A stretch of 64,000 bases of DNA from Acidobacteriota bacterium (GTDB taxonomy: Bacteria; Acidobacteriota; UBA890; WLXD01), in contig CBDBHB010000009.1 of assembly GCA_965205505.1 (NCBI GenBank), forward strand, positions 384,001 to 448,000, read 5' to 3'. The first letter of the stretch is position 1; each line of letters opens with the position of its first letter. Below the pieces are notes generated by a model. It worked only from the letters and a program-made list of their open reading frames with translations. It had not been told where the DNA came from and ran no database searches. Both the position numbers and the translations under genes were made by a program. Below are positions 3 through 50,708 of this stretch, one piece after another.

Positions 3-1223
3 CAGGAAGGGCCCGATCCGAATCGCCCAGGTGCGAATGAGGTGATTGAGTACGACGTTCCGGACGAGGTCGATATCGACTACGAGGTACTGGACAACAT
101 CGACACTGCGTCGTCGGAGTTCGGCGTCGTGCCGTTGCCAGCCAACGTTGGCAAGACCCTGACGGGCCTGTTCAGTAAATACACGAAACACGTCGCTCCC
201 AACGGCAAGCCGATCCATATCCTCGGCCAGTCGCGGGTGAGCGATCTACAGATGGCCCGGGCTCGGGAAATCCTCCGATACCACCTCACGAATGCGCCTA
301 GTACCAGGTATGGACGTGAAAAGACTGCGATCGCCAACCGCATGGGAGACGTGCGCGCGACGCTCATCTACACAGACACGCAAGCCAGGGCGTTTGCGAT
401 GTACGACATCATCGGGGAGTCGGAACTCGCTCTCCAGGACCTGTATGCCACGGAATCTCCCGTGGAGGGCGACTACGTTTACCTCCACAACGAGGCCGAG
501 CCGGGAGGGTTCTTCACGCGTGACGCCTCCTACGAGGAGATCATGCATCTGGTGCACGCGAAAGGCATCGAGGGGGCGCTTCCCGGGTACCACGCAGCGA
601 TCGAGAAAGCTGAGCAGCGCGCTGTAGATGCCGGGATATACAAGTACGGGTCGCCCGCGCCCCACGAGTACATTATCAGCGGCTTCGATATCTATTTCGG
701 CTTGTGGGACCACGATCCCCAGGGCGACGGTACCTCCTACGGTGATGAGTACCCGTACCACACACGCGCTGAGATGATGGCCGGCGACCGGCCGTTGTTC
801 GACCTGGTCAAGGAGTTCTGGCCCGAATACCTAACCTATAACGCCTACATCGATCCCTCGTTCGAAGGGACGTTCATGATGGTTCACGACGATGCCGTCG
901 AATACACGCACAAGTCGCGGTTTCTCGTGGAGATCACCCTGACGGGAAACAAGGACACGAACGTCTTGGGCAACGACCAGAGCAACATCTTGACGGGCAA
1001 CGAAGGCGACAATGCGTTCATCGGTGGTGCCGGAGACGACGTGATCGCGGGTGGGGCTGGAACCGATCGAGCAACCTTCGCCGGGGTAGCATCCGAGTAC
1101 CGAGTCGAGTCGATGGGATCGACTACAACAGTGACCGACACCGTGGACCGCCGTGACGGGGCGGACGAGTTAACAGGGGTCGAGATCCTCGTTTTTCGGG
1201 ACGGGGAAGTTCGGGTCGAGTAG
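3..1223 (+). CDS. EExxH zincin-like protein with C-terminal RTX-like Ca-binding repeats (family member A; 5' end probably outside the window)
   Basis: Frame is open to the window edge; APNGKPIHIL, RDASYEEIMHLVH, PHEY; GGAGDDVIAGGAGTD repeats; clear paralog of 19619-22414 and 56641-57894. Confidence 0.8.
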   Translation, partial: QEGPDPNRPGANEVIEYDVPDEVDIDYEVLDNIDTASSEFGVVPLPANVGKTLTGLFSKYTKHVAPNGKPIHILGQSRVSDLQMARAREILRYHLTNAPSTRYGREKTAIANRMGDVRATLIYTDTQARAFAMYDIIGESELALQDLYATESPVEGDYVYLHNEAEPGGFFTRDASYEEIMHLVHAKGIEGALPGYHAAIEKAEQRAVDAGIYKYGSPAPHEYIISGFDIYFGLWDHDPQGDGTSYGDEYPYHTRAEMMAGDRPLFDLVKEFWPEYLTYNAYIDPSFEGTFMMVHDDAVEYTHKSRFLVEITLTGNKDTNVLGNDQSNILTGNEGDNAFIGGAGDDVIAGGAGTDRATFAGVASEYRVESMGSTTTVTDTVDRRDGADELTGVEILVFRDGEVRVE

Positions 1224-9628: not shown

Positions 9629-11278
9629 TCAGGGCTCGAGCCCGAAGGTGAAGATGTCGTTGCCGGCGGCGATGGTCACGTACTGATCGCCGTCGGCAAG
9701 ATACGTGATCGGCGCGGCCTGCACCCGTCCACCGATGTTCATGTGCCAGAGGTCTTCACCGGTGTGTGCGTCAAGCGCGAAGAAGTACCCGTCGACCGTG
9801 CCACCGAACACCAGATCGCCCGCCGTCGACAGCAGCCCCGTCCGGCCCCGCGGCTGCACGCGGTGCTCCCACTTCCTTTCGCCGGTCTGCGGCACGATGG
9901 CCCGCACGGCGGCGACGTAGTTGTCGATTGGCATCGTTCTCTGCCAGCTGCCGCCCTCATAGAGCTCGCCGGGCACGTACTCGTCGTCACGAACGAAGAA
10001 CAGCTCCTCGGCGTCATGGGTCATGACGTAGAGAAGCCCCGTCTTGGGGCTGTAGGTGGTCGACCACCAGTTGGCGGCGTCCTCCACCGGTGGGGCAACC
10101 AACGTGCCCTCCGCACTGGGCATGATGCCGGGCCGGAAGATCGGTCGACCGTCGTCGTCGATGCGCTCCGCCCAGGTCTGCTTGGCGAAGGGCGTCGCCA
10201 GCAAGAACTCGCCGGTCTCGCGGTCGAGCACATAGAAAAACGCGTTGCGGTTCGCCCAGACCATGAGCTTGCGCGGCTGCCCATCGAAGACGGCGTCGAC
10301 CAGAACAGGGATCTGAGCGGCGTCCCAGTCCCAGACATCATGCGGGGTGAACTGGAAGTACCACCTGAGCTCGCCGCTGTCGGCGTCGAGCGCCAGGACG
10401 CAGTCGGAGTACAGGTTGTCGCCCTCCCGGTCCTCGCCGTTGAAATCGGGGCCGGGATTACCCGTCCCCCAGTAGACGAGATTGAGCTCCGGGTCGAACG
10501 AGCCGGTTACCCAGGTTGCAGAGCCTCCGGTCTTCCAGGAGTCGCCCTCCCAGGTCTCGTTGCCGGGCTCGCCGGGTGCGGGAATCGTGTAGAAGCGCCA
10601 GACTCGGCTCCCGGTCTCGGCGTCATAGGCGTCGATGAAGCCGCGAATGCCGTAGTCGCCGCCGGCGATGCCCGTCACCACCATGTTCTTGACGACGAGC
10701 GGCGCTGCCGTCTTGCTGTAGCCGGCCTGGTGATCGATCACCTCGATGTTCCAGATTACGTTGCCGGTCTTGGCGTCCAGCGCGACGAGGTGCGCATCGA
10801 GGGTGCTCACGAACAGCCGATCGCCCAGGATCGCCACGCCGCGGTTGTTTCGCCCACAGCAGTAGGGGACGCCGCTCGGGACCTCGTGCTCGTATCGCCA
10901 GAACTGTCGTCCCGTCTTGGCATCCAGGGCGATCACGGTGCTCGGTGACTCGGTCACATACATGACGCCGTCGACGACGAGCGGCGTCGTTTCTGCCCGG
11001 TCGAGAGTCCGCAATTGGTGGACCCATTTCAGGCGGAGCCTGGCGGCGTTCTGCGCCTGAATCTGGTCCAGTCGGCTGTAGCGCTGTCCGTTGTACTGCC
11101 CCGAGTACATGAGCCAGTTGCCGGGCTCCTGGTCGGCGTTGACCAGTCGGTCGTAGCCCACCGGGCTGAAGGCGGGCACGGCCGTGGTGGGTGCGGACGA
11201 TTGCCCCTCGGCGGGCCCGTCGCCGGCAAGCAGCAGGACTGCGATAGCTACCGCGGCGAGAAGCGTGCGCCGTCTCAT
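9629..11278 (-). CDS. PQQ-dependent dehydrogenase, methanol/ethanol family
   Basis: Vicinal CC (YCCGRNNRG), WGTGNPGP, GDNLYS, PHDVWDWD; signal peptide; ATGA overlap with the upstream cytochrome. Confidence 0.92.
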   Translation of the reverse strand: MRRRTLLAAVAIAVLLLAGDGPAEGQSSAPTTAVPAFSPVGYDRLVNADQEPGNWLMYSGQYNGQRYSRLDQIQAQNAARLRLKWVHQLRTLDRAETTPLVVDGVMYVTESPSTVIALDAKTGRQFWRYEHEVPSGVPYCCGRNNRGVAILGDRLFVSTLDAHLVALDAKTGNVIWNIEVIDHQAGYSKTAAPLVVKNMVVTGIAGGDYGIRGFIDAYDAETGSRVWRFYTIPAPGEPGNETWEGDSWKTGGSATWVTGSFDPELNLVYWGTGNPGPDFNGEDREGDNLYSDCVLALDADSGELRWYFQFTPHDVWDWDAAQIPVLVDAVFDGQPRKLMVWANRNAFFYVLDRETGEFLLATPFAKQTWAERIDDDGRPIFRPGIMPSAEGTLVAPPVEDAANWWSTTYSPKTGLLYVMTHDAEELFFVRDDEYVPGELYEGGSWQRTMPIDNYVAAVRAIVPQTGERKWEHRVQPRGRTGLLSTAGDLVFGGTVDGYFFALDAHTGEDLWHMNIGGRVQAAPITYLADGDQYVTIAAGNDIFTFGLEP

Positions 11279-12081
11279 GGTTGTCTCTCCGTTCTTCGCA
11301 ACGAGTACAGGTAGGCCACGAGATCGTCCACTTCCCCCGGAGTCAGCTCTCCCTCGTAGCTCGGCATGGGGGAGGTCTCGATGCGCTCGCTCTCGCGCAG
11401 GTCTCGCTTCGCGAACGACCAGAGGTTCTCGTCTCCATCCATGATGCGCACGGAGTACGTATCCTCGTTCATGCGTATCCCTTCGACCCGCGTACCGTCC
11501 TCGTGCGCGACTCGCATCGACCACCAGCGGGGTTGCACCTCCTCCTGCGGCTGAAGCAGGTCGGCTCTTAGCGCCCCCGGCGCACGGCGCTCGCCGACCC
11601 GGGTGAGATCGGGCCCCAGCCGGCCTCCGGTGCCCTCGACCATATGGCAGCTGTCGCAGTCGCCCTTGCCGCGGTAAAGCGCTGCGCCCGCGGACGGATC
11701 GCCCGGCAGCGACGCGTCATCCGGCGCTTGGTTCAGCGCCCCGAGGTAGGCCACGAGCTGCCAGACGGCCTTATCCGATCGGGTTCGGTGAAGCGGTGGC
11801 ATCTCGGTGCCGGGGATTCCTTCCGCGACTACCTCGAACAGCCCTGCGTCGCCGCGCGCCAGGATCCTCCCGGTCGTCAGATCGGGCCCCCGACCGCCCC
11901 TCGCGTCGCGTGCGTGGCAACGGCCGCAATGCACACGGAACAAGTTCTCGCCAGCAGCAACATCTTCCAACTCGGTAAACGGATTGATGGTCTCCTGGGC
12001 CGCGACGTTCGTGGCCCAGCCCACTACCAGCAGACCGGCGACTGGCGCCACGCGCCAGCGGCGGTGTGTTCTGCGAAGCAT
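11275..12081 (-). CDS. Diheme cytochrome c, probable partner of the PQQ dehydrogenase
   Basis: CGRCH and CDSCH; GPDLT; SPMPSY; DLVAYL; signal peptide. Confidence 0.9.
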   Translation of the reverse strand: MLRRTHRRWRVAPVAGLLVVGWATNVAAQETINPFTELEDVAAGENLFRVHCGRCHARDARGGRGPDLTTGRILARGDAGLFEVVAEGIPGTEMPPLHRTRSDKAVWQLVAYLGALNQAPDDASLPGDPSAGAALYRGKGDCDSCHMVEGTGGRLGPDLTRVGERRAPGALRADLLQPQEEVQPRWWSMRVAHEDGTRVEGIRMNEDTYSVRIMDGDENLWSFAKRDLRESERIETSPMPSYEGELTPGEVDDLVAYLYSLRRTERQP

Positions 12082-12261
12082 GCCCATCCTTTCTGCCGAG
12101 ATGTTCCAGGTGACACCGCATTGTCTACCGATGACTCCGGCTTGATAAGAGGGTCGATCTCCAATCCGCTGGAATCCGCGCAAGGGGCGTGCTTAGTTTG
12201 TCTTTCAGGGTAACCGGGTCAGCATCGGCTCTGCGGAGCGCAGCACGCGGGAGGAAGCTCG

Positions 12262-13506
12262 ATGAGGAAAGCGCTGATCGTCGGCGTTGCATCGCTAGCC
12301 TTGATCGGTAGCTGGAACACGCTCCCAGCTTCGGGCTCGTCGCCGCAAGAACAGGTGCCCACCTGGACCGACGACATCGGCCCCCTGATGGCCGCCAACT
12401 GCATGGGTTGCCACCGGCCAGGCGAGGTAGCCCCCATGTCGTTGTTGTCTTACGACGACGTTGTCCCCTGGGCCCGTTCGATCCGCATGGTGGTCGGCGA
12501 GCGCATCATGCCCCCATGGCATGCCGATCCGCGCTGGGGCCATTTCGCCAACGACCGCCGGCTCACCGATGACGAGATCGGCACCATGTTGGCCTGGATC
12601 GAGGCCGGGTCTCCGCGTGGGACCGGCACGTTCGCCGCACCGACCTTCCCGGAGGGCTGGGCCCTCGCCGCCTCGGCGGGGCCGCCCGACTATGTCTTCG
12701 AGATGGAGGAGGAGTGGCAAATGCCGGCTGCCGGGCCGGACATCTACCAGCACGTCTACATCCCCACCACGCACACCGAGGACATCTGGTTGCGCGGGTT
12801 GGAGGCCAGGGGCAACTCACGGATTGTCCACCACATCGACATCATGGCCGAGCATCCGGACGACAGTCGGGCATTGCTGGGGATCAACCTTCCCGGGAAG
12901 CCGCCGGATTTCTTCCCGGAGGGCAGCGCCGTGCTGTTCCCGGCCGGAGCGCAGCTGCGTCTGACGATGCACTACCACCCCAACGGCGAGGAGCAGACGA
13001 ACCGCACCCGCGTCGGCGTCTGGCTGGCGCGATCCCCGATCGAGTACCAGGTCATCGGCAGCCTCGTTACCGACCAGACGTTCGAAATCCCGCCGTATGA
13101 GCCGAACTACGAGCACGTCGCGGAAAAGGTGTTCGACGAGGATGTCGATCTGCTGGTCCTCAACCCGCACATGCACTATCGGGGCAAGGACTTCATGTTC
13201 CAGGCGATCCATCCCGACGGTCGGGAAGAGACCCTGCTGTACGTGCCGCACTACAACATCTACTGGCAGATGGTCTACAAGCTGGCGCAGCCGCTTCACC
13301 TGGCCAAGGGATCGAAGCTCCGGACGGTCGGACACTTCGACAACTCCGAGAACAACCCCTGGAACCCGAACCCCAGCGTGAGGGTCATCTACGGCATGGA
13401 CTCGCGCGACGAGATGTTCGAGGGATGGCTCCACTATCGCCGCAAGTTGGACAAGCCGGTCATTCCTTCCTACGGCGAGCTCACCACCGACGGCGGCGCG
13501 AGCTAG
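12262..13506 (+). CDS. Cytochrome c-fused copper type II (PHM/DbM-like) monooxygenase, copy 1
   Basis: CMGCH...MPPW; VHH, MHY, PHMH, DEM matching PHM CuH/CuM ligand spacing; signal peptide. Confidence 0.8.
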   Translation: MRKALIVGVASLALIGSWNTLPASGSSPQEQVPTWTDDIGPLMAANCMGCHRPGEVAPMSLLSYDDVVPWARSIRMVVGERIMPPWHADPRWGHFANDRRLTDDEIGTMLAWIEAGSPRGTGTFAAPTFPEGWALAASAGPPDYVFEMEEEWQMPAAGPDIYQHVYIPTTHTEDIWLRGLEARGNSRIVHHIDIMAEHPDDSRALLGINLPGKPPDFFPEGSAVLFPAGAQLRLTMHYHPNGEEQTNRTRVGVWLARSPIEYQVIGSLVTDQTFEIPPYEPNYEHVAEKVFDEDVDLLVLNPHMHYRGKDFMFQAIHPDGREETLLYVPHYNIYWQMVYKLAQPLHLAKGSKLRTVGHFDNSENNPWNPNPSVRVIYGMDSRDEMFEGWLHYRRKLDKPVIPSYGELTTDGGAS

Positions 13507-13550
13507 TGTCCCGGAGCCTCTGTTCCCGGACGCTCGGTGCATGCTCGAAG

Positions 13551-14234
13551 ATGAGGATCTCTAGGGCACTTGCCCTCGGGCTGAGCGTCGGGATCTTGGT
13601 TTCCGGGTGTAGCCGGGAGGCCGAGCCGGATCCCGTCGGTCTCTGGAACCTGAAATTCGGCGCGAGCCAGGCGTCGACCGGAAGGATTCCCACCTCGCTG
13701 CTCCGGGTGGAGGAGGTCGACGGTGAGATCGAAGCTCAGCTCACCTCGATCCGCGACCGCTTTCTCCCCGTCGACGACCTCCGCGTCGAGGGCGCAACGA
13801 TGAGCTTCGCCTATGGTGCCTACGAGTACGACCTCGAAATCGACGGCGATCTCATGACCGGAACCGTCGTCAGCCCGCGCGGCACCGAGCCGGTCAGCGG
13901 CCGTCGACAGGTCGAGACCATGATGTACAACCGCCCGGAGGAGTTCCGGACTTCCCGGGGCGGGGTCATCGGCCACCGAGTCGAGCTGGCGCCTCCCGAC
14001 GACGAGCCCGACCCGACCGCGTGGGTGCTCAGCCGGGTCCAGGCTCCGAGGGACCTGGCGTTCATTGTCTTTCTGAGGAACCACACGACTGCTGTCGCCT
14101 TCGTCAACGCCGAGGATTTCGAGGAGGAGCTCAGAGCCCACGCCGGCCAAAGGGTCGAGATCACCGCCGTCTGGGTGGGGGAAGAGCTCCGCCTGGAGAC
14201 CATCGAGGCAGCTGAAACGGAGACTGAAGGCTGA
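13551..14234 (+). CDS. Hypothetical lipoprotein, copy 1
   Basis: VSGC lipobox; paralog of 15494-16186. Confidence 0.8.
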   Translation: MRISRALALGLSVGILVSGCSREAEPDPVGLWNLKFGASQASTGRIPTSLLRVEEVDGEIEAQLTSIRDRFLPVDDLRVEGATMSFAYGAYEYDLEIDGDLMTGTVVSPRGTEPVSGRRQVETMMYNRPEEFRTSRGGVIGHRVELAPPDDEPDPTAWVLSRVQAPRDLAFIVFLRNHTTAVAFVNAEDFEEELRAHAGQRVEITAVWVGEELRLETIEAAETETEG

Positions 14235-15481
14235 TGAGGAAGGCGCTGATCGTCGGCGTTGCATGCATCGTCCTGATCGGCAGCTGGGGCACGCTCGTAG
14301 CTTCGGGCTCGCCACCGCAAGAACGAGCGCCCACCTGGACAGACGACATCGCGCCCCTGATGGCGGTCAACTGCATGGGCTGCCACCGGCCGGGAGAGGT
14401 GTCTCCCATGTCGCTGTTGACCTACGAGGACGTTGTACCGTGGGCCCGGTCGATCCGCATGGTGGTCAGCGAGCGGATCATGCCTCCGTGGCATGCGGAT
14501 CCACGTTACGGCGATTTTGCCAACGACCGCCGGTTGACCGAAGAGGAGATCGGCACGCTCGTCGAGTGGGTCGCGGCGGGGGCTCCCCGCGGCAGCGGCG
14601 CGTTCACCCCACCGACGTTCCCGACCGGCTGGGCCCTCGACGCCGAGCTCGGGCCGCCCGACTACATCTTCGAGTTGGAAGAGGAGTTTCTCGTGCCGGC
14701 GGCCGGGCCGGACATCATCCACCACGTCATGACCTCCACGACACACGAAGAGGACATCTGGATCCGAGCAATCGAGGCGCGGGGCAATTCCAGGGTGGTG
14801 CATCACATCAACGTCGACGCCTATTGGCCCGACGGCACCTGGGACGGGCTGGCGCTCGCGGTTCCCGGCAGGCAGCCGGATCTGTTCCCGGATGGGAGCG
14901 CGCATCGGCTGCCGGTCGGATCACAGTTCCGCGTCGAGATGCACTATCACCCGAACGGCGAGGAACAGGTCGACCGCACCAAGGTCGGCGTCTGGCTGGC
15001 CCGAACAGCAATCGAGTACGAGATCCGCGGCAGTCTGGTCACCGATCAGAGCTTCGAGATACCGCCGTACGAGCCGAACTACGAGAGCGTCGCGGAGAGG
15101 GAGTTCGACGAGGAGGTCGAGCTGCTGCTCATGACCCCGCACATGCACTATCGCGGCAAGGACATGAGGTTCCAGGCGATCCATCCCGACGGTCGGGAGG
15201 AGACCCTGCTGTTCGTGCCGCAATACAACATGTACTGGCAGATCGCCTACGTGCTGGCGAAACCGACTCGGCTCGCCAAGGGGTCGAAGCTCCGGGTTAC
15301 CTCGCACTTCGATAACTCGGAGAACAACCCCTGGAACCCGAACCCCAGCGTGAGGGTCATCTGGGGCATGGATTCACGCGACGAGATGATGGAGGGATGG
15401 ATCCACTATAGACGCAAGCTGGCAGAGCCGGTCATTCCCTCCTACGACGCCGAGATCACTGGCGGCAGTGGCGCCAGGTAG
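14234..15481 (+). CDS. Cytochrome c-fused copper type II monooxygenase, copy 2
   Basis: Same motifs (CMGCH, VHH, MHY, PHMH, DEM); TGATG coupling to the upstream gene. Confidence 0.8.
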   Translation: MRKALIVGVACIVLIGSWGTLVASGSPPQERAPTWTDDIAPLMAVNCMGCHRPGEVSPMSLLTYEDVVPWARSIRMVVSERIMPPWHADPRYGDFANDRRLTEEEIGTLVEWVAAGAPRGSGAFTPPTFPTGWALDAELGPPDYIFELEEEFLVPAAGPDIIHHVMTSTTHEEDIWIRAIEARGNSRVVHHINVDAYWPDGTWDGLALAVPGRQPDLFPDGSAHRLPVGSQFRVEMHYHPNGEEQVDRTKVGVWLARTAIEYEIRGSLVTDQSFEIPPYEPNYESVAEREFDEEVELLLMTPHMHYRGKDMRFQAIHPDGREETLLFVPQYNMYWQIAYVLAKPTRLAKGSKLRVTSHFDNSENNPWNPNPSVRVIWGMDSRDEMMEGWIHYRRKLAEPVIPSYDAEITGGSGAR

Positions 15482-15493
15482 GGGTCGTCTTCG

Positions 15494-16186
15494 ATGCCGC
15501 TCGGAGACTCTCGCGCGTTCGCCGTCGCGACCGGCCTTACACTCGGCCTCGGAATCGCCGGGTGTGTCCAGGCAGCCGAGCCGGATCCCGTCGGGCTCTG
15601 GAACCTGAAATTCGGAGAGCAGAGTCAGCGCGCGACCGGCAGGATTCGCACCGTGCTGCTGCGATTGGAGGAGGTTGGCGGTGAGATCGACGGACACCTC
15701 ACCTCGGTTCGCGACACCTTTCTCCCCATCGACGGCCTGCGCGTCGACGGCGCTGCGATCAGCTTCGGCTTCGGCGCCTACGACTACGACCTCGAGCTCG
15801 ACGGCGATCGGGTCAGCGGAACCGTCGTCAGCCCACTCGGCACCCAGCAGGTCAGCGGCTTCCGGCAGGGCGAAACCCTGATGTACAACCGCCCGGAAGA
15901 GTTCCGGACATCACGTCAAGGGGTGATCGGCCATCGGGTCGAGCGCGTGCCTCCCGAGGGCGAGCCCGACCCGGCCGCGTGGGTTCTCGGCCGAGTGCAG
16001 GCTCCCGAAGACCTGGCACTGATCGTCGCGTTGAGGAATCACAAGGCCGTGATCGGCTTTGTCAATGCCGGGGATTTCGAGGAGGAGCTCAGGGCCCACG
16101 CTGGCCAGCAGGTCGAGATCACCGCCGTCTGGGTGGGGGAAGAACTCCGTCTCGAGCACATCGAGCCGGCTCACGAGGAGCACTGA
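15494..16186 (+). CDS. Hypothetical lipoprotein, copy 2
   Basis: IAGC lipobox; EPDPVGLWNLKFG and MYNRPEEFRTSR shared with copy 1. Confidence 0.8.
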   Translation: MPLGDSRAFAVATGLTLGLGIAGCVQAAEPDPVGLWNLKFGEQSQRATGRIRTVLLRLEEVGGEIDGHLTSVRDTFLPIDGLRVDGAAISFGFGAYDYDLELDGDRVSGTVVSPLGTQQVSGFRQGETLMYNRPEEFRTSRQGVIGHRVERVPPEGEPDPAAWVLGRVQAPEDLALIVALRNHKAVIGFVNAGDFEEELRAHAGQQVEITAVWVGEELRLEHIEPAHEEH

Positions 16187-16194
16187 TACCGGAC

Positions 16195-16878
16195 ATGTCG
16201 ACGAAGCTCGGGGAGTTCATCAGGGCGCTCTTGACTGGCACAGGTCTGTCGCGCCGCGAGCTGCTGAAGCGAGCCGGAATCGTTGGCGCGACGGCCACCC
16301 TGCCGGTGCCGACTCTTGCTCCAGCGCCGGCGGCTGCAACCGCACAGGATGCCTTTGAGACGCTCACCGCGGCGGAATCCGGAGTGCTCGAGGCGATCGT
16401 CGCGCGGTTGATTCCGACCGACGATAGCGGGCCGGGCGCCCTGGAGGCGGGCGCTGCGCGCTACATCGACCGCGCTCTGTCCGGCGCCCTCGCGTCGTAC
16501 CGCGAGGCATACGCGGCGGGCCTCGCCGCGGTGGACGGGTACGCGCAAGCCTCCAGGGGCGCGCCCTTCGCCGGGCTCTGGGAAGCGGATCAGGACGACC
16601 TCTTGAGCGACATGGAGCAGGGCGTTGCGAGCGGGTTCGACTCGAGCTCGGCGGAGTTCTTCGGGCTGCTTCGGACGCATACGATCGAAGGCACTTTCTG
16701 CGACCCGCACTACGGCGGTAACCGGGATTTCGTCGGTTGGGACCTGCTCGGCTATCCCGGCGTCCGAGTGGTGGTTACCGAGTCGCAGCAGCGCATGGAC
16801 GCCGCGGCTACGCCGAGCCGCCGGTCGGCGTACGACTATCCGGGGTTCTCGAAGCCAGGTGTGGACCGTGGCCGTTGA
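16195..16878 (+). CDS. Gluconate 2-dehydrogenase subunit 3 family protein (Tat signal)
   Basis: SRRELLK twin-arginine motif; RLIPTD...PGA; EGTFCDPHYGGN...GW.LLGYPG. Confidence 0.9.
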   Translation: MSTKLGEFIRALLTGTGLSRRELLKRAGIVGATATLPVPTLAPAPAAATAQDAFETLTAAESGVLEAIVARLIPTDDSGPGALEAGAARYIDRALSGALASYREAYAAGLAAVDGYAQASRGAPFAGLWEADQDDLLSDMEQGVASGFDSSSAEFFGLLRTHTIEGTFCDPHYGGNRDFVGWDLLGYPGVRVVVTESQQRMDAAATPSRRSAYDYPGFSKPGVDRGR

Positions 16879-18571
16879 GCTGAAGAAGACCGACGTGGTC
16901 GTCATCGGCCTCGGAGCGGTCGGCGGTGTGGCGGCCTTGCCGCTGGCCCAGGCGGGGCTGGAAGTGATCGGGCTCGAGGCGGGAGACTGGCTCGGCCCCT
17001 CGGACTTCGCCCCCGACGAGCTGCAGCACCGGCGCGGCTGGCCACGCTCGGTGCAGAAGGCCAACCGGGAGGTTCCGATCCAACGCCGGAGCGCCTCGGC
17101 GCCCGACTCGCCCCGCTACTCCGTCCACCCGATGATGAACGCGGTCGGCGGCACCTCTCTGCACTACTGGGCGCAGAGCTGGCGTCTCCACCCCTGGGAC
17201 TTCAAGGTGGTGAGCGAGACCACCCGACGCTACGGTGCCTCGCGCATCCCGGCGGGCTCGACGGTGGAGGACTGGCCGTTCGGCTTGGAGGAGCTCGAGC
17301 CCTATTACGATCTCGTGGAATATGAGATCGGGGTCTCGGGCAAGGCCGGCAACATCGACGGCGAGATCGATCCCGGTGGGAACATCTTCGAGGGTTCGCG
17401 GCGCCGCGAGTATCCGATGCCGCCGCTACGAGGCACCGGATTCACCGAGCTTATGTCGGGCGCCGCGCGAGGTCTCGGGTGGCACCCGTTCGCCGGCCCG
17501 GCGGCGATCAACTCACGCCAGTACCAGAGCCGGTCGGCCTGTGTCTACCACGGCTTCTGTAGCCGCGGCGGCTGCCACGTCAGTGCCAAGAACTCGACCG
17601 CCGTAACGACGATCCCCAGGGCAATAGACACGGGGAGCTTGCAGGTGGTGCCGCGGGCTCACGTCCTGCGAATCGCCGATGCCGAGGACGGACGGGTGCG
17701 CGGTGTCTACTACCTCAAAGACGGTGAGACGTACTTTCAGCCGGCGTCGGTCGTGCTGCTCGCCAGCTTTACCTACGAGAATGTCCGCCTTCTGCTGCTG
17801 TCGACCTCGACGACCTATCCGAACGGCCTGTCCAACAACCACGGTCAACTCGGCAAGCACTATCTCAGCCACAACATGTTCAGCGGCGTCGTTGCCCTCT
17901 TTCCGCACGACCTCAACACCTGGTATGGACTGCCGGCGCAGGGCGTGGCGATCGACGACTGGGCCGACGACAACTTCGACCACGACGGGCTCGATTTCAT
18001 CGGCGGCGGCAACCTGTGGGTCCATACGGAGAGAAAGCCGATCAGCGCCGCGAACATGAACACGTTCGGGCGCGCCCCACGGTGGGGCTCGGCCTGGAAG
18101 TCGTTCGTCATGCAGAACGCCGATCGCTCGAACCGGTGCTTCATTCAGACGACGACGCTGCCGTACGAGAGCAACTACCTCGACCTCCATCCGACCGTGA
18201 AGGATCCCCTCGGCGATCCGGTGTGCCGCATCACGGCCGATTTCAAGGACAACGAAAGAAAGCTTGCCGTCTTCCTCCAAGACAAGATGGCGGAGTGGTA
18301 CATGGAGGCGGGCGCGGCGGAGATCGTCAAGCGCCCGATCGACACGATGGGGCCGACGGATCACGCCTACGGGGGCACACGCATGGGCGACAATCCCGAC
18401 ACCAACGTCGTCGATCGCTGGGGCTTCTCACACGAGGCCCCGAATCTCGGCGTTCTCGGAGCCTCCGTGATGGGCACCAGTGGTTCGCGCAACCCGACGC
18501 TCACCGCCCAGGCGCTCGCCTGGCGCACCGCCGAGCACCTGGTGGAGAACTGGGCCTCCATTGCCTACTAG
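16868..18571 (+). CDS. GMC family oxidoreductase (gluconate 2-dehydrogenase flavoprotein-like)
   Basis: GLGAVGG FAD motif; VGGTSLHY; CVYHGFC...GC; HAYGGTRMG; NPTLT. Confidence 0.92.
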   Translation: MAVELKKTDVVVIGLGAVGGVAALPLAQAGLEVIGLEAGDWLGPSDFAPDELQHRRGWPRSVQKANREVPIQRRSASAPDSPRYSVHPMMNAVGGTSLHYWAQSWRLHPWDFKVVSETTRRYGASRIPAGSTVEDWPFGLEELEPYYDLVEYEIGVSGKAGNIDGEIDPGGNIFEGSRRREYPMPPLRGTGFTELMSGAARGLGWHPFAGPAAINSRQYQSRSACVYHGFCSRGGCHVSAKNSTAVTTIPRAIDTGSLQVVPRAHVLRIADAEDGRVRGVYYLKDGETYFQPASVVLLASFTYENVRLLLLSTSTTYPNGLSNNHGQLGKHYLSHNMFSGVVALFPHDLNTWYGLPAQGVAIDDWADDNFDHDGLDFIGGGNLWVHTERKPISAANMNTFGRAPRWGSAWKSFVMQNADRSNRCFIQTTTLPYESNYLDLHPTVKDPLGDPVCRITADFKDNERKLAVFLQDKMAEWYMEAGAAEIVKRPIDTMGPTDHAYGGTRMGDNPDTNVVDRWGFSHEAPNLGVLGASVMGTSGSRNPTLTAQALAWRTAEHLVENWASIAY

Positions 18572-18642: not shown

Positions 18643-19557
18643 ATGATGCGCCAGCGTTCCGCCATACCTATGAGCGTCGCCATGGCGGCGATGCTCATGT
18701 TGATGGGTCCCACCGTCACCTCGGAGGCGTTCGCCCAGGGCGCGATCACCGCCGGCGAGATCAAGGGCACCTTCCAGGATGATGCCGAGGATGCTCACCT
18801 GTGGTCGGGGCCCGATGGCAAGCCGTTGCCGTTTCGAACCTACGAGGAGGCGACGGAGTTTCTGCGTACCGCCGAGGTCGTGTCGTCAGAGGACTTCGGC
18901 ATCGGCATTACGGGGATCAAACGTCTGGTGCTCGAGCGCGACGGCGTGTGCGTGCGCGGCGCCTTTCACGATGTCGACAAGGTGACGGCGGACTCCCGAG
19001 TGAACCGGCGCATGTTTCGCCGCTACTACGACAGCTACAAAAGCCAGTGTGCCGCCTACGAGATAGCGCGCCTGTTCGAGCTCGACAACGTGCCGCCTAC
19101 GGCCTGCCGCAACGTCAACGGCGTTGACGGAAGCGTGCAGCTGTGGATGGAGGGAACGCAAAGCGAGCGAGACCAACGAGAGACGGCGTCGGGCCCGCCA
19201 GTGACGAACGACTGGATACTCCAGATCCAGGCCATGCGACTGTTCGACAGCCTGATCTTCAACGACGACCGGAACAGCGGCAACTACCTGGTCGACGTAG
19301 ATTGGGAGCTCTGGATGATCGATCATTCACGCGCCTTCCAGGTGCGCACAGAGCTCCGCTATGGCGATGAGATCGTGTGGTGCACGGAGCGCATGTGGCA
19401 GCTGCTTCACCAGGTAACCGATGACCAGATTCGCGCCGCGGTCGACATGTTGTTGGTCCCACGGCAGCTGAATGCGCTGCTCGAGCGGCGCACGATACTC
19501 GTCGAGCACATCCAGAAGATGATCGACGAGCACGGCGAAGGTGCCGTACTCCGTTAG
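18643..19557 (+). CDS. Secreted atypical protein-kinase-like protein (PI3/4-kinase/HipA-like fold)
   Basis: GIGITG loop, AAYEIARL...VPPT, GSVQLW, FDSLIFNDDRNSGNYL, WMIDHSRAF; signal peptide AFA/Q. Confidence 0.75.
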   Translation: MMRQRSAIPMSVAMAAMLMLMGPTVTSEAFAQGAITAGEIKGTFQDDAEDAHLWSGPDGKPLPFRTYEEATEFLRTAEVVSSEDFGIGITGIKRLVLERDGVCVRGAFHDVDKVTADSRVNRRMFRRYYDSYKSQCAAYEIARLFELDNVPPTACRNVNGVDGSVQLWMEGTQSERDQRETASGPPVTNDWILQIQAMRLFDSLIFNDDRNSGNYLVDVDWELWMIDHSRAFQVRTELRYGDEIVWCTERMWQLLHQVTDDQIRAAVDMLLVPRQLNALLERRTILVEHIQKMIDEHGEGAVLR

Positions 19558-19618: not shown

Positions 19619-22414
19619 CTACCCGGACGTGAGCCTGCGGATCTCGTCGTCGAGGCCGGTCATCTCCCAGCGGATCAGTGACCAGGGAATCGATCCGGTG
19701 TCGAGCACGCCATCGAGGAACTCGCTGAGCTTGAACTCGTCGCCTAGCTGGTTGGCGCGGTCGCGGAACAGCTTCATGAACTGCACCTTGCCGACCACCA
19801 TCAACATGTGGTGTCCGACGCCGCGCAACGTGGTGTCGAGCTCGAACCACAGGTGGTGGCTGCCATCGAGCAGCTCTCCATGGGGCGCGTTGCCGACGCA
19901 GAATTCCATCGCATCGGCAAGCGTCCAGTCGCCGCTGTGCATGTAGATGTCCGAGAGTGCCCGCACGGTGCGGAACGCCGACTGCTCGTAGGCGATCTCA
20001 CGGCCGTGCGGGTTTCGTCCGTCCAGGTAGCCGGCGTGCATCAGCAGCTCTTCGAGCGCGAAGGCGAAGCCCTCACCGCGCGCCGTGCCGATCTTGAAGG
20101 GGCGGCGGCCGCCGCGAATCGGACGGTCGTCGTTTCTCGAGCGTAGGCCGTCGAAATGGTGTCCGACCATCTCGTGTGTCTCCTCCATCAACGGCTCACG
20201 GTGTGAGAAGTTGAAGAAGTAGTCGTGCTTCTCGGGCCAGGGGTTGTCGAACCCGTGCCACGAGCCGAAGTACTCATCGGGCGTCAGGTAGTCGTTCACC
20301 GTGAAGATCTCCTGGTCGCGCAGGAAGTCCATCAGGTGGTCGATTGCCGCCGAGACGCTGGCCTTGTACTCGGCCTGCGATTGCACCGGCTCGATGGCCG
20401 GGGCGTCGCGGTTGCGGTTTTCCTCGAGCCGCTGGTAGGTGATGACGCGGTTGTCCTCGAGCTCGACGATGGTGCGCACCTCTTCCCAGGTGTAGGGGAA
20501 CAGGTAGACGTTCTTGAGCAACCAGTTGTAGTTGTCCTTGCCTACCCCGGCGCGGGCCGTCATGCGGTGCTTGTTGGCCTCGATCCACCCGATGTAGCCA
20601 TCGATGGCGGCGAGCGCCGCCTCGAGGTCGGCTATGAGCTCCGGGTGATGCTCCGCCAGGCGCGTTCGCAGCGACTCGTAGCCGGCCCGGGTGTCGCCCA
20701 GCGACAGCACCGCCAGCGTGCCCAGGTCGCCGGCGACGACCGATAAGTCGTGGAGGTTCACCCGTGCCTGCTCGAGAATGCCGCCGACAGATCGGAGCCG
20801 GTCTCGCATCGTGGCGCGCTGCTCCTCGGTGAGCGCCCCGTCCCCCCGCAGACGTGTGCGTGGCAGCGCGTCGTTGTAGAAGCCCGGATCGAGCAACCAC
20901 GGCACCAGCACTCGGTGACGGAACTCGAGTCCGTTCATCTCCGCGCGCACCAGCTGATAGTCGACCTGCTGGGAGATTGGCCAGTCACCGGGATCAATTG
21001 CGGCGAGGCGATGTTGATACTGCTTCAGCTCCTCGAACTGAACCGCCATGGCGGTCGCCGAGTAGTCGGGCACGCCCTCGATCCTCTCGGCGGCGAGGAA
21101 CTTCCGGAAATCCCCGAACAACGCCAGCAGATCCGCGTAGCTGGCCGGGCCAGCATCGCTCGCCAGGTCCGGCAAGCTCACGGTGTCGTCGGCAAAGGCG
21201 AGGAGCTCGATATTGAGGAGCAGGTCGGATCCGTCGCGATCGATACGCTGGTCGATGACCCTGACCGTGACGCCGTCACGCGCCACGTCATACTCGTCAG
21301 CGTTGCCCTCGTAGACGGCAGTGTCGGTGCCGCGGCCGCCGTCGAGCAAGTCGGCGCCGGCGTTGCCGCGCAGCGTGTTGTCGCCGCTGTTGCCGGTGAG
21401 CTGGTTGTCCCAAGCGTTGCCGATCAGGCCGGCGTTGTTGTTGCCGGTTAGCGTGGCGTTCTTGAGATGCTGCGACTTGCCGGTGTAGCGTAGCGAGCCG
21501 TCGCGCTGCATCGAGAACGTGCCCTCGAATTCTGCTGGTAGCTCGGGTGTGTAGGTGAGGAACGGCGGGAAGAACTCCTGCAGGATCGCCAGCCCCTCGG
21601 GATCCGACAGTCGCATCCCGTGGCGGCCTCTGGCGCCGTATCCTCCGAAATGGGAGGTGCCGGCGGGGATCCTGTCCGGGTCTATCGGCCGCCCCTCATA
21701 GACGGTCGGAGGCACCGTCCAGAGATCCAGGTAGTTGTCGTAGATCGCTGCGAAGTACTCGTTGGGCTCATTCTCGAGGTCATCCTGGTTGCCGCGCCAC
21801 AAGCCTCGGTCCATGGCGGCGTGAGTGATACGCCGCAGCTCCTCCTGCATCTCGGGCAGCGCCGGCTTGATGCCGTAGTCGTGCACCATGTGCAGCACCT
21901 CCTCGTAGGAGGCGTCGCGGGTGCGGTGCGCCATGTAGTCCTCGTGACCCTCGACCGGCGCCTCGTTGGCGCGCAGGTCCTGCATGCCGAGCTCGACATC
22001 CCGCAGCGGCCCGCGGAAGGCGGCGCGCATGTCCGGCTCGGTTCTGAATAGGGTCAGCGTTGCCCGGTTATCGGCCATGGCATTGGCGACGATGCGCTTG
22101 TCGGCGCCGTACTTGGTTCCCGGAACGTCGCGCAGTATGTGCTCGAGCACATTGCGCGCCTTGACGATGCGGGCGTCGCTCCAGCCGTCCTGGGCGAGGA
22201 TGTGGATCGGCTTGCCGTTGGGCGCCACCACCTTGGTGTATTTCGCGAAGACCTCGCGAATGACCGGCGAGACGGTTTGCGGCAGCACCACGACGCCGTT
22301 GGCCGATGTGGAGGTGTCGATATCCGGCAGCGGCTCGGTCGCTTGCGGGGCACCGACAGCGACGGCGCCGGCCAGCATGGTGAGGACGACGAGAACGGTG
22401 GCGACCAAGGGCAT
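19619..22414 (-). CDS. Fusion of EExxH zincin-like domain + RTX-like repeats + DUF885-like domain (family member B)
   Basis: GGAG RBS before ATG 22414; signal peptide; RDASYEEVLHMVH, PNEY; GNAGADLLDGGRG; C-terminal HEMVGHH and GEGFAFALEE. Confidence 0.85.
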   Translation of the reverse strand: MPLVATVLVVLTMLAGAVAVGAPQATEPLPDIDTSTSANGVVVLPQTVSPVIREVFAKYTKVVAPNGKPIHILAQDGWSDARIVKARNVLEHILRDVPGTKYGADKRIVANAMADNRATLTLFRTEPDMRAAFRGPLRDVELGMQDLRANEAPVEGHEDYMAHRTRDASYEEVLHMVHDYGIKPALPEMQEELRRITHAAMDRGLWRGNQDDLENEPNEYFAAIYDNYLDLWTVPPTVYEGRPIDPDRIPAGTSHFGGYGARGRHGMRLSDPEGLAILQEFFPPFLTYTPELPAEFEGTFSMQRDGSLRYTGKSQHLKNATLTGNNNAGLIGNAWDNQLTGNSGDNTLRGNAGADLLDGGRGTDTAVYEGNADEYDVARDGVTVRVIDQRIDRDGSDLLLNIELLAFADDTVSLPDLASDAGPASYADLLALFGDFRKFLAAERIEGVPDYSATAMAVQFEELKQYQHRLAAIDPGDWPISQQVDYQLVRAEMNGLEFRHRVLVPWLLDPGFYNDALPRTRLRGDGALTEEQRATMRDRLRSVGGILEQARVNLHDLSVVAGDLGTLAVLSLGDTRAGYESLRTRLAEHHPELIADLEAALAAIDGYIGWIEANKHRMTARAGVGKDNYNWLLKNVYLFPYTWEEVRTIVELEDNRVITYQRLEENRNRDAPAIEPVQSQAEYKASVSAAIDHLMDFLRDQEIFTVNDYLTPDEYFGSWHGFDNPWPEKHDYFFNFSHREPLMEETHEMVGHHFDGLRSRNDDRPIRGGRRPFKIGTARGEGFAFALEELLMHAGYLDGRNPHGREIAYEQSAFRTVRALSDIYMHSGDWTLADAMEFCVGNAPHGELLDGSHHLWFELDTTLRGVGHHMLMVVGKVQFMKLFRDRANQLGDEFKLSEFLDGVLDTGSIPWSLIRWEMTGLDDEIRRLTSG

Positions 22415-22432
22415 GCTGATTGCTCCGGGGGG

Positions 22433-22490
22433 TTGGCAGGCCATGGTGGAAGTTTGGTGCGTCACACTTCCTTCCACCATGGCCTGCTAG
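22433..22490. repeat. 58-bp head-to-head doublet of the repeat (MITE/REPIN-like hairpin)
   Basis: Perfect 17-bp IR GCAGGCCATGGTGGAAG (22436-22452) / CTTCCACCATGGCCTGC (22471-22487); terminal CTAG supplies the stop of the M28 gene. Confidence 0.9.
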
Positions 22491-24088
22491 CGATTTAGTG
22501 AACGCTTGCTGATGACCTGCGTGTCGGATCTGGGGATCTTCTCGTCACGTGTGGCGGCGTGATAGGCGAAGCTGGCCAGAATCGCGGCGTTGCCCATCAG
22601 GTCGGCGACGACGATACGATCGTAGACGTCCATGTTGGAGTGCCAAGTCTTGGTGAAGTACTCGAGGTCGTCCTGAAGGAACTTGAATCCTGGCAACCCT
22701 GCCTCGTTGAACGAGACGCTGTCGGTGCCGCCAGTCGGTACGGGCAGCAGGTGCGCGAAGCCGAGATCGTGGAACGGCTCCATCCACGCCCGGAAGATGG
22801 GCGCCACCAGGCTGTTGCCCTCGATGAACAGGCCACGGAAGCGCCCGTACCAGTCGGTGTTGAAGTACACCGAGAAGTTCTCATAGTCGGGCAGACGCTC
22901 GCTGGCCTCGATATCGATGAAATGGTTGCGCACGTAGCCGCGTGAGCCCAGCAGGCCGGCTTCCTCAGATCCCCAGAGGATGCCGCGGATGGTGCGCCGG
23001 GGCTGCGCGTCGATTGCCCGAAGAATGCGCATCGCCTCCATGACCACGGCGCTGCCGGCGCCGTTGTCGGTGGCGCCGGTGCCGGCCGACTCGGCGTCGA
23101 AGTGGCCGCCGACAATGACCACCTCGTGGGCCAGATCGCTGCCGGCAATTTCCGACACGACGTTGTAGTCCTGCAGGTCTTGCTCGTCGTAGCGAACGCG
23201 GACCTCCAGCTCGAGCTCGACATCCCTACCCATGTCGAGCACGCGGATCACCCGGTTGTAGTGCTCCGCGGCGACGATCAGATGTGGCATCGGCTTCGGA
23301 TCGCCCGGCATGATGGGCTCACCACCCACGACGCGGACCGTGCCCTTGTCGAAGGCGCCCTGATCGGTACCGAGACCCGGCGAAACGAGCGCCACGGCGC
23401 CGGCCCGATCGAGGAGCTCCGCGATGGCGGTCGCCTCCAACGGTGCGGCCATCGCGCCGTCGACCAGCTTGTCGTACTCGGCCTCTGCCAGCTGCACGAG
23501 CTCCGGCTCCGGCAGGATGCGAAAGCTCGCCCAGTCGTCGAGCTGCTCCCGAGTGAAGCGGATCCCGTCGGGCGTGAAGCTCGGCTGCAGCTCTCGTGAG
23601 GGGGCGATGAACACGATCTTGCCGTCTACCAGCGCGCCGTACGGCTCGAGATCGGCCGCCGAGCGAATCTCCTCGGCGTTCACGTGGATCGCGGTGCTCC
23701 GAATCTGGCCGTCTGTGCCGCGGGTCCATGGAACGGGGTAGGCGATGAGTGTCTGGTATTGCGGCTCCATCATGTGAAACGATGTGTACTCGTTTTGCCA
23801 GCCCACCCCGACGGTGCCGAATGGCTCGACCACGGCATCGACGCCGAACTCCCGGAACTTCTCGCGCGCCCAGTGCGTTGCTTCGTTATAGGCAGGGGAG
23901 TTGGAAAAGCGCGGTCCGTAGACGTCGGCAATGGTGCTGACGAGCTCCGCGACTCGCGAGCGGTTGAACGCCTCGTCCTTGATCCGTTGGATGATGTCGT
24001 AGTTCACCGGTTCCTGGGCCAGCATGCCGCCGCCGGCGGCGACGGGCCACGACAGCAACGCCAGCAAGGTGATGGCGCGGTAGCTCAT
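22487..24088 (-). CDS. M28 family metallopeptidase (carboxypeptidase Q-like), secreted
   Basis: GGHFD, GATDNGAG, WGSEEAG, NTD, WHSNMD; signal peptide. Confidence 0.9.
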   Translation of the reverse strand: MSYRAITLLALLSWPVAAGGGMLAQEPVNYDIIQRIKDEAFNRSRVAELVSTIADVYGPRFSNSPAYNEATHWAREKFREFGVDAVVEPFGTVGVGWQNEYTSFHMMEPQYQTLIAYPVPWTRGTDGQIRSTAIHVNAEEIRSAADLEPYGALVDGKIVFIAPSRELQPSFTPDGIRFTREQLDDWASFRILPEPELVQLAEAEYDKLVDGAMAAPLEATAIAELLDRAGAVALVSPGLGTDQGAFDKGTVRVVGGEPIMPGDPKPMPHLIVAAEHYNRVIRVLDMGRDVELELEVRVRYDEQDLQDYNVVSEIAGSDLAHEVVIVGGHFDAESAGTGATDNGAGSAVVMEAMRILRAIDAQPRRTIRGILWGSEEAGLLGSRGYVRNHFIDIEASERLPDYENFSVYFNTDWYGRFRGLFIEGNSLVAPIFRAWMEPFHDLGFAHLLPVPTGGTDSVSFNEAGLPGFKFLQDDLEYFTKTWHSNMDVYDRIVVADLMGNAAILASFAYHAATRDEKIPRSDTQVISKRSLNR

Positions 24089-24761: not shown

Positions 24762-24899
24762 ATCCGCAGATGACCTTGAGTCGGCATCCGCGGTCAGGCT
24801 CCGCCGATTCCACACAGCCTCTTGTCAGCATGCGTTGAATGGGTTACGACGGGCATGAACTTCAGCGACCCTAGGGGTCCGTGGATGGGAGGCCTTGGT

Positions 24900-45299: not shown

Positions 45300-45327
45300 C
45301 CGCAACACTTTCACCACGGCCTGCTAG
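45300..45327 (+). repeat. 28-bp CTAG-ended repeat encoding the last codons and stop of the sugar dehydrogenase gene
   Basis: CCGCAACACTTTCACCACGGCCTGCTAG; minus strand reads ...ASRPW*. Confidence 0.9.
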
Positions 45328-50695: not shown

Positions 50696-50702
50696 TGGCG
50701 GC

Positions 50703-50708
50703 AGTATA
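50703..50708 (-). promoter_or_regulatory. -10 box 7 nt upstream of the ATG (possible leaderless transcript)
   Basis: Minus strand TATACT-gccgcca-ATG(50695); no SD sequence. Confidence 0.4.

Follow-up and report, generated by a model that had tools for sequence, protein, structure and literature searches.

A 64,000-bp stretch of DNA from an Acidobacteriota bacterium (assembly GCA_965205505.1, contig CBDBHB010000009.1, positions 384,001 to 448,000; hereafter the window) encodes two closely related exported proteins, MO1 and MO2, that join a heme c motif to the ligand set of a two-copper monooxygenase. Their predicted fold and the conservation of their ligands give good support to the conclusion that they are fusions of a heme c motif to a core with the fold of peptidylglycine α-hydroxylating monooxygenase (PHM) and dopamine β-monooxygenase (DBM). 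Each of the two genes is followed by a gene for a lipoprotein, lipo1 or lipo2, and the recognition of this lipoprotein as a partner is what is new here. The reading that we favor, with moderate confidence, is that the periplasmic heme c-two-copper enzyme and its lipoprotein constitute a functional unit that would be fed by a general pool of periplasmic electron donors.

A heme c motif joined to a PHM/DBM-type copper core

MO1 (12262..13506, + strand, 414 amino acids [aa]) is an exported heme c-motif/two-copper monooxygenase-like protein of the PHM/DBM fold, and MO2 (14234..15481, + strand, 415 aa) is its paralogue; the two are 72% identical (299/414 residues). Both contain a single CMGCH motif at residue 47, behind a hydrophobic N-terminal signal that was judged by eye from the sequence, and the exact 414-aa product of MO1 is present in the protein collection as P0001. 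The heme motif is followed by the pattern His-His (190/191), His (237), His-x-His (303/305), and Met (385), which corresponds to that of the H and M copper sites of PHM and DBM and from which assembly of the two sites is predicted. According to PMC12164859, the coppers of PHM are 11 Å apart and its CuM center is of the His2Met type.

Residues C47, C50, H51, M83, H190, H191, H237, H303, H305, and M385 were invariant in 42/42 aligned homologues. Conservation was also scored in 150 diverse representatives, taken as the best of an exhaustive search, clustered at 50% identity, and aligned to the 42-sequence profile. C47, C50, and H51 were each kept in 148 of these 150; H190 and H191 each in 149; H237, H303, and H305 each in all 150; and M385 in 148, the other two having gaps at this position. 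M83, which is part of an invariant MPPW, was likewise kept in 150/150. Ligand conservation in 148-150 of 150 sequences is far beyond chance. A first-pass annotation of the window, made from the nucleotide sequence alone, had reported two exported proteins with CMGCH and a full set of copper ligands; both were recovered, as was every other gene that it described, at the coordinates given, and the ligands that it named are those conserved across the representatives.

An AlphaFold model of MO1 calculated from the 42 homologues had a predicted local distance difference test (pLDDT) score of 86.9 and a predicted template-modeling (pTM) score of 0.82. The best match to this model among solved structures, as found by Foldseek, was human dopamine β-hydroxylase (4zel_B, E 7.4e-14, 309 columns). 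About 25 PHM entries also matched (E 3.4e-13 to 3.7e-9, 272-320 columns, template-modeling [TM] scores of 0.55-0.64 by target length), including rat PHM 3mih (E 3.4e-13, 283 columns, TM 0.60 by target length). The fold matches span both catalytic domains of MO1, and H190/H191 and H237 are located on model strands 189-197 and 231-238, respectively. The next unrelated fold match had an E-value of 1.2e-6 and a TM score of 0.08, and a fold search against viral structures returned low-TM β-sandwich and capsid-like matches only. In Atlas the core alone (residues 125-414) scored 0.95 to clusters named after Cu2_monoox_C, a domain carried by 30% of the members of the top cluster. A separate Atlas cluster near the copper core (0.93; 72 members, 38% with Cu2_monoox_C) was mostly viral (Uroviricota).

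Domain models gave weaker signals. Cu2_monoox_C (PF03712) scored 25.1 bits in MO1 and 21.2 bits in MO2 relative to a cut-off of 23, and PF01082, the N-terminal Pfam copper domain, had no match in MO1 or MO2; in the relative P0123 it reached 20.5 bits, below its cut-off of 30. Cytochrome_CBB3, for which the cut-off is 27, scored 18 bits in MO1 and exceeded the cut-off in the relatives P0121 (37.1 bits), P0122 (34.1 bits), and P0068 (37.7 bits). The MO profile (alignment A1) weakly matched the heme region of the hydrazine synthase alpha subunit (E 0.052) and the monoheme cytochrome 4rlr (E 0.7), and NCBIfam contained no family for MO1, MO2, or the lipoproteins. Because the Pfam signal for the copper domain is marginal, the assignment rests on fold and ligand conservation, which together sustain the earlier proposal of a heme c fusion to a PHM/DBM-type core.

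A large family with variable extensions

The exhaustive search returned 15,113 representative clusters at E≤0.001, 8,925 at E≤1e-10, and 2,102 at E≤1e-30, and a word-index search found at least 2,790 relatives among 8,000 scored candidates. Family members occur in Acidobacteriota, Planctomycetota, Gemmatimonadota-like bacteria, and other bacteria of soil and water, whose sequences are labeled at source as hypothetical protein, cytochrome c, or mono/diheme cytochrome c family protein, and once as alkyl hydroperoxide reductase. No description of such bacterial enzymes was found in the full-text literature searched; subscription journals lie outside that literature, so prior work is possible.

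Among the 150 best representatives, 64 consist of the bare core, like MO1 and MO2, 71 have an N-terminal extension of at least 120 aa, and 15 have a C-terminal extension only. An AhpC/TSA domain was found in 64 of the 71 N-terminally extended relatives. Of the 71 extensions, 65 have no CxxC; a single-cysteine G-T-x-C-P motif recurs in the examples inspected. Cu2_monoox_C was detected in 20 of the 71 longer relatives, and the tails that occur in the family include TPR, hydrolase, GDSL, and PQQ-repeat domains. In one relative, P0121 (1251 aa), a thioredoxin-like domain and a heme motif each occur a second time, so that the whole module appears to be repeated.

A lipoprotein partner for each monooxygenase-like protein

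The partner of MO1, lipo1 (13551..14234, + strand, 227 aa, lipobox VSGC), and that of MO2, lipo2 (15494..16186, + strand, 230 aa, lipobox IAGC), are 71% identical and belong to a small family of 20 clusters. Neither has a Pfam or NCBIfam family; Pfam at E≤10 returned only DUF5818, with insignificant E-values of 0.044 and 0.093. The first-pass annotation had noted a lipoprotein of this kind after each monooxygenase gene, correctly, and had overlooked that it is the best-supported partner of the enzyme.

Four relatives are in-frame fusions of an MO protein with a lipoprotein: P0008 (650 aa), P0018 (617 aa), P0021 (619 aa), and the fragment P0289. The fused lipoprotein domains are 45-47% identical to lipo1 and lipo2 and are joined right after the MO C-terminus, without a signal or lipobox. 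Since these fused forms have no lipobox, anchoring cannot be the only role of the lipoprotein. Lipoprotein clusters and close MO relatives were also found on contigs of equal length (191181, 5761898, 2549575, 1668521, 179122, 79995, 252383, 8008, and 6394 bp); for the close lipoprotein-bearing relatives, co-location was inferred from such equality of contig size, not from DNA, and it only bounds the distance between the genes. Within the window, MO1 and lipo1 are separated by 44 nucleotides (nt) and MO2 and lipo2 by 12 nt, and the lipo1 stop codon overlaps the MO2 ATG by 1 nt; the MO and lipoprotein genes are translationally coupled.

Structure prediction of the complex with the lipoprotein had been proposed in the first-pass annotation as a check, and its outcome favored an association. 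The model of MO1 (residues 28-414) with lipo1 (residues 23-227) scored 0.64 (runs 0.64, 0.64, and 0.67), as compared with 0.00 for the best of three controls. Of solved complexes, 116 of 157 attain this mark, as do 2 of 215 mismatched pairs; these counts apply only approximately, since our own alignments were used. The runs shared at least 64% of contacts, and the pLDDT of the partner was at least 77. To our knowledge no complex of this type has been solved, and it is improbable that the model passed by reproducing a known structure. On the MO1 side the confidently modeled interface comprises residues 58-59, 69-85, 330-335, and 366-367, which belong to the heme domain, including M83, and to two loops of the CuM domain. 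On the lipo1 side it comprises residues 31, 47-52, 66-72, 87-91, 109-110, and 120, which lie at or beside the invariant residues W32, L50, L51, F71, G89, Y91, P109, and Q120.

The lipo1 model (pLDDT 79.3) is composed of an N-terminal β domain (residues 30-119) and a C-terminal α/β domain (residues 133-220). The β domain bears a weak resemblance to barrels that bind bile acids and fatty acids (3elz_C, E 2e-4, TM 0.49 by target length), and Atlas gave lipocalin and NlpE as leads at 0.78-0.79, below the level counted as more than a lead. Taken together, the fusions, the co-occurrence, the gene packing, and the complex model lead us to conclude that the lipoprotein is a true partner of the MO protein and that the MO-lipoprotein pair is the best-supported unit of the locus. 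The role of the lipoprotein would be the delivery of substrate or the tethering of the enzyme to the membrane.

A cytochrome-less flavoprotein and a divergent PQQ dehydrogenase

Nine genes are located between positions 9629 and 19557, seven on the + strand and two on the - strand. Downstream of lipo2, after 8 nt, is the gene for a small (gamma) subunit of the Gluconate_2-dh3 type (16195..16878, + strand, 227 aa; PF13618, 104 bits) with the twin-arginine signal SRRELLK. This gene overlaps by 11 nt that of a GMC-type flavin adenine dinucleotide (FAD) dehydrogenase large (alpha) subunit that has no signal peptide of its own (16868..18571, + strand, 567 aa). The six + strand genes from MO1 to the GMC gene are packed like an operon, with gaps of -11 to 44 nt. 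A candidate seventh gene, 71 nt beyond the GMC stop codon, encodes an exported protein with no family match (18643..19557, + strand, 304 aa) and may be the last gene of the operon; its matches in Pfam were all insignificant (PI3_PI4_kinase, E 0.15; HipA_2, E 0.49) and lay around residues 188-237. The starts of MO1, lipo1, the small subunit, the GMC protein, and the PQQ dehydrogenase described below are backed by exact or 100%-identical database entries; an exact-sequence look-up in the protein collection gave no support for the start codons of the diheme cytochrome and the 304-aa open reading frame (ORF). A promoter scan of the region returned no promoter-like sites, and a scan for terminators, in which eight sites were found and 4.6 ± 2.2 were expected, was uninformative.

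The GMC protein matched GMC_oxred_C (59.8 bits) and GMC_oxred_N (30.5 bits) in Pfam and is identical over its 567 aa to P0290. It aligned from end to end (query residues 5-558) with the large subunit of Gluconobacter fructose dehydrogenase (FDH; 7w2j_A, E 3.2e-36) and, likewise over its whole length, with that of the Burkholderia FAD-dependent glucose dehydrogenase (FAD-GDH; 6a2u_B, E 1.3e-35). The 3Fe-4S cluster of FDH and FAD-GDH large subunits feeds a cytochrome subunit. Three cysteines of the GMC protein align with the Cys-rich segment of FDH, a segment that we take to be the holder of the cluster. The exact 227-aa product of the small-subunit gene is present in the protein collection, and no solved relative of it was found by sequence search. 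CxxCH is absent from the GMC protein and from the next ORF, so no cytochrome (beta) subunit is encoded after them; the nearest cytochromes to the GMC gene are the heme domains of the MO proteins and the divergent diheme cytochrome. On sequence grounds, therefore, the flavoprotein is an alpha/gamma pair of the fructose dehydrogenase type without a cytochrome subunit. With an FDH-like Cys-rich segment and no cytochrome subunit, the GMC flavoprotein plausibly needs a heme partner.

Diverging from MO1, with 174 nt between, are the genes for a diheme cytochrome c (11275..12087, - strand, motifs CGRCH and CDSCH) and, directly after its stop codon, a pyrroloquinoline quinone (PQQ)-dependent dehydrogenase of the methanol/ethanol family (9629..11278, - strand, 549 aa). 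The exact 549-aa product of the latter is present in the protein collection. The dehydrogenase matched PF01011 (316.9 bits) and TIGR03075 (572.6 bits, cut-off 480.05), and its score with the "acido-empty-quinoprotein" model was 538.7, below the cut-off of 650. The cytochrome matched Cytochrome_CBB3 (72.6 bits), Cytochrom_C (61.8 bits), and TIGR02603 (91.2 bits, cut-off 68.15). The PQQ dehydrogenase and its own diheme cytochrome look self-contained. What the first-pass annotation had said of these genes, namely that twin-arginine-exported gluconate 2-dehydrogenase-like subunits lack a cytochrome of their own and that the diheme cytochrome and PQQ dehydrogenase are divergently transcribed, agrees with these findings.

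Elsewhere in the window are two further PQQ dehydrogenases, at 24822-26876 (+ strand) and 46528-48552 (- strand), which scored 618 and 604 bits to PF01011, a soluble glucose/sorbosone dehydrogenase (GSDH) at 45311-46531 (- strand, 423 bits), and a protein at 48686-50815 (- strand) that combines two cytochrome c domains with a ThuA domain. With three PQQ dehydrogenases, GSDH, and a cytochrome-ThuA fusion in the window, chance adjacency of the MO genes to a dehydrogenase becomes more likely.

Linkage to the dehydrogenases in distant and close relatives

A genome scan yielded 79 loci of MO relatives at 35-47% identity, which were searched by tblastn with the window proteins. The lipoprotein, the Gluconate_2-dh3 small subunit, and the GMC protein were each found in 0/79 of these distant loci, the PQQ dehydrogenase in 3/79, and the diheme cytochrome in 1/79; at L074, a cytochrome-PQQ pair is located 4-5 kb downstream of the MO relative. 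Among the 70 loci with a called MO ORF, another CxxCH ORF was present within 3 kb in only seven, and MO paralogues were frequent (95 MO ORFs in the 70 loci). Linkage with the dehydrogenases is not a property of the family.

Clustering of the neighbors at the 79 loci revealed no conserved partner, and no neighbor family occurred in more than six loci. The largest apparent family (11 loci) was rejected, as its members were ORFs antisense to the MO gene. The genuine families, which reach four to six loci, are DUF1501, heavy-metal-binding domain (HMBD), YHS plus TPR, DUF2911, and M28 peptidase. A protein with YHS and TPR domains is encoded near the MO relative in five loci (L079 7022-8128, L037, L040, L046, and L056), in four of them directly downstream, and those with titles are planctomycete. 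An HMBD protein is encoded near the MO relative in five Vicinamibacterales-type or Acidobacteriota loci (L032 11604-12974, L016, L029, L033, and L064). The YHS plus TPR and HMBD proteins may be metal-handling neighbors. A DUF2911 protein of about 180 aa is encoded convergently, just downstream of the MO relative, in L010 (9124-9675, - strand), L004, L007, L036, and L045; four of these loci have titles of Blastocatellia or uncultured Clostridia and one of Acidobacteriota. M28 peptidases are encoded near the MO gene in 4 of the 79 loci (L029 5224-6612, L032, L033, and L064), and, since the four are from one group of related genomes, they represent a single event at most. The window itself contains M28 peptidases at 22487-24088 and 59389-61230 (both - strand).

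The GMC enzyme has a distribution of its own. It was present at 74-87% identity in all 119 others among the 120 clusters listed, from Acidobacteriota, Acidimicrobiia, and others; kept in this way across phyla, it works without this MO protein elsewhere. Of the 16 contig sizes with members of the MO1/MO2 type, 11 are shared by a GMC orthologue of at least 87% identity. When contigs below 300 kb are considered, 6 of 11 hold both (15730, 79995, 112139, 179122, 191181, and 252383 bp), and the MO-bearing contigs without a GMC orthologue are of 1645, 2623, 6394, 15362, and 48998 bp. The tightest case is the 15,730-bp contig. In addition, a contig size of 6,394 bp is common to the PQQ dehydrogenase, an MO1 fragment, and the lipoprotein, and a size of 18,071 bp to a PQQ dehydrogenase fragment and the small subunit. 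The relatives sharing the whole cluster are close, with MO1 76-88% identical, and the whole cluster seems to be kept within this clade. Synteny in other genomes had also been proposed as a check in the first-pass annotation, with a divided result: linkage to the dehydrogenases seems to hold in close relatives and is lacking in distant loci for the GMC protein and nearly so for the PQQ dehydrogenase.

Proposed electron supply to the copper core

In the reading that we favor, heme c would be bound covalently at C47, C50, and H51, with M83 as the likely sixth ligand, and two separate copper sites would be formed by H190, H191, and H237 (CuH) and by H303, H305, and M385 (CuM). MO1 and MO2 would each be complexed with the lipoprotein encoded just downstream, the calycin-like barrel of which is predicted to dock on the heme domain and the two loops of the CuM domain. 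The heme would accept single electrons from periplasmic donors and hand them to the coppers, thereby replacing the ascorbate of the animal enzymes as the point of electron entry, for which a built-in cytochrome domain is a sensible substitute; O2 would be activated at CuM and the substrate hydroxylated. No fixed donor is proposed because none of the 79 distant loci holds the GMC enzyme and a further CxxCH ORF lies within 3 kb in just 7 of 70. The external donor would most likely be a general pool of periplasmic c-type cytochromes and dehydrogenases, which the flavoprotein and the PQQ dehydrogenase/diheme cytochrome may feed in this clade without being fixed parts of the system. Cofactor loading, the direction of electron flow, the O2 chemistry, and the function of the lipoprotein in this scheme are what we infer. 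Amines or peptides had been put forward as substrates in the first-pass annotation, and nothing in the analysis supports them.

Several observations weigh against this reading. Sequence searches with MO1 or the 42-sequence profile among solved structures did not reach PHM or DBM, and the Pfam scores for the copper domain are marginal, with that of MO2 below the cut-off. The single-cysteine AhpC/TSA domain in 64 of the 150 relatives is a hint of peroxide chemistry over plain O2 monooxygenation. The invariant residues of the lipoprotein include a single His and neither Cys nor Met, so it is not itself a redox carrier, and it is predicted to sit on the heme domain, a place at which docking of an electron donor could be expected. 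Finally, the genes form a tight operon and the cluster seems to recur as a whole in close relatives, from which it can be argued that the flavoprotein may not be a mere bystander.

If the flavoprotein were a dedicated donor, which we regard as unlikely, the cytochrome-less twin-arginine-exported enzyme would use the MO heme domain as its acceptor, such that oxidation of a sugar or polyol drives hydroxylation at copper, with the PQQ/diheme pair as a possible second feeder. Such a chain would account for the packing of the six genes and for an alpha subunit that aligns with the FDH and FAD-GDH large subunits, retains the three cysteines, and has no cytochrome subunit of its own. It would also fit the presence of the GMC gene on 11 of the 16 MO-bearing contig sizes, six of them under 300 kb and the smallest of 15,730 bp, and the 6,394-bp size common to the PQQ dehydrogenase, an MO1 fragment, and the lipoprotein. 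However, equal contig size suggests the same contig and does not prove adjacency, and because the relatives that share the cluster are close, the shared order may reflect recent ancestry. In the distant loci the GMC and Gluconate_2-dh3 proteins are absent (0/79 each) and the PQQ dehydrogenase and diheme cytochrome rare (3/79 and 1/79), and the GMC protein occurs in 119 other listed clusters where the lipoprotein family is not known, so that it must have another acceptor there. The window is, moreover, crowded with periplasmic dehydrogenases. The chain from dehydrogenase to heme c to copper drawn in the first-pass annotation thus stands in part: packed genes, a cytochrome-less flavoprotein, and apparent co-location in the clade speak for it, and its absence from the 79 distant loci and the occurrence of the GMC protein elsewhere speak against it. 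A clade-specific, self-contained, ascorbate-free machine, in which a cytochrome-less 3Fe-4S flavoprotein plugs into the MO heme domain and the lipoprotein holds the substrate, is in our judgment unlikely.

Two further possibilities concern the chemistry and the substrate. The hint of peroxide chemistry could mean that the MO protein is a heme-copper protein that uses or reduces peroxide (a peroxidase, a peroxygenase, or an oxidase-type electron sink) and not an O2-dependent hydroxylase. The AhpC/TSA domain in 64 of the 71 extended relatives would belong with the one-Cys thiol peroxidases and not with redoxins that have CxxC, given that 65 of the 71 lack CxxC. One cluster member was named alkyl hydroperoxide reductase by its source, and no substrate-binding residues were matched to PHM. 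We nevertheless consider a peroxide-using protein quite unlikely: of 150 representatives, 148-150 retain the full His3 and His2Met ligands characteristic of the hydroxylases, the window proteins have no AhpC/TSA domain, the reductase name is an automatic label, and a redoxin domain might just as well act in maturation or guard against uncoupled turnover. Least probable of all is a metabolic coupling in which the flavoprotein and the MO proteins process the same small hydrophobic or glycosylated compound one after the other, with the calycin-like lipoprotein binding it and handing it over. The resemblance of the lipoprotein N-domain to bile-acid and fatty-acid barrels (3elz_C), the lipocalin/NlpE leads in Atlas, the contact of the predicted interface with loops of the CuM (substrate) domain, and the operon-like packing of the genes would be consistent with it, but the barrel match is weak, the Atlas scores are mere leads, and linkage across the family is lacking in the 79 distant loci.

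Other genes in the window

RTX calcium-binding repeats were found in two window proteins, encoded at 3-1223 (+ strand) and 19619-22480 (- strand), the second of which also contains DUF885.

Significance

PHM and DBM are the textbook enzymes of animal neuropeptide and catecholamine synthesis, and the passage of electrons between their two widely separated coppers is still a matter of debate. A branch in bacteria that has a heme of its own would offer a triggerable spectroscopic handle on electron entry, and would show that PHM/DBM-type chemistry is possible without ascorbate. Identification of the substrate would give a function to thousands of genes, and the MO-lipoprotein pair of the window is a compact starting point for expression. 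If it proved true, a flavoprotein-MO machine would use the oxidation of one compound to hydroxylate another and would be a bacterial counterpart, built from unrelated parts, of the fungal pairing of dehydrogenases with lytic polysaccharide monooxygenases (LPMOs).

Comparison with known systems

The animal enzymes PHM and DBM depend on ascorbate. MO1 and MO2 share with them (PF01082 plus PF03712) a two-domain β-sandwich core, with Foldseek E-values of about 1e-13 over 270-320 columns, and the order of ligands, His-His...His in the first domain and His-x-His...Met in the second. They differ in being bacterial and periplasmic, in having 13-18% identity to the solved enzymes, and in the dedicated lipoprotein partner. 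They differ also at the N-terminus, where MO1 and MO2 have a CxxCH domain, whereas DBM has, according to PMC12164859, a DOMON domain and PHM has none.

The nearest relatives in composition are the redoxin-cytochrome c-PHM-like fusions of Planctomycetota, Acidobacteriota, and others, which combine a cytochrome with a two-copper core 35-47% identical to that of MO1 and MO2 and retain the same invariant residues. These fusions have an N-terminal single-Cys AhpC/TSA domain, often with TPR, hydrolase, or PQQ-repeat tails, and have no lipoprotein (0/79 loci; 0/150 representatives), whereas MO1 and MO2 consist of the bare core and a separate partner. The lipoproteins, in turn, resemble lipocalin/fatty-acid-binding protein barrels and NlpE in what appears to be a small anti-parallel barrel ahead of a second domain, and for lipo1 this likeness is weak (E 2e-4, Atlas 0.78-0.79, no Pfam match).

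With the heterotrimeric dehydrogenases (fructose dehydrogenase 7w2j, FAD-glucose dehydrogenase 6a2u, and gluconate 2-dehydrogenase) the flavoprotein of the window has in common a homologous alpha subunit and a Gluconate_2-dh3 small subunit with a twin-arginine signal, and it differs in that the window pair has no gene for a cytochrome c (beta) subunit. In fungi, cellobiose dehydrogenase or PQQ-cytochrome dehydrogenases pass electrons via a cytochrome domain to LPMOs. In fungi it is the dehydrogenase that carries the cytochrome, and the recipient is a mononuclear copper enzyme, whereas here the two-copper enzyme carries it; the two systems have no homology, and their likeness lies in the logic of the coupling, which for MO1 and MO2 is proposed.

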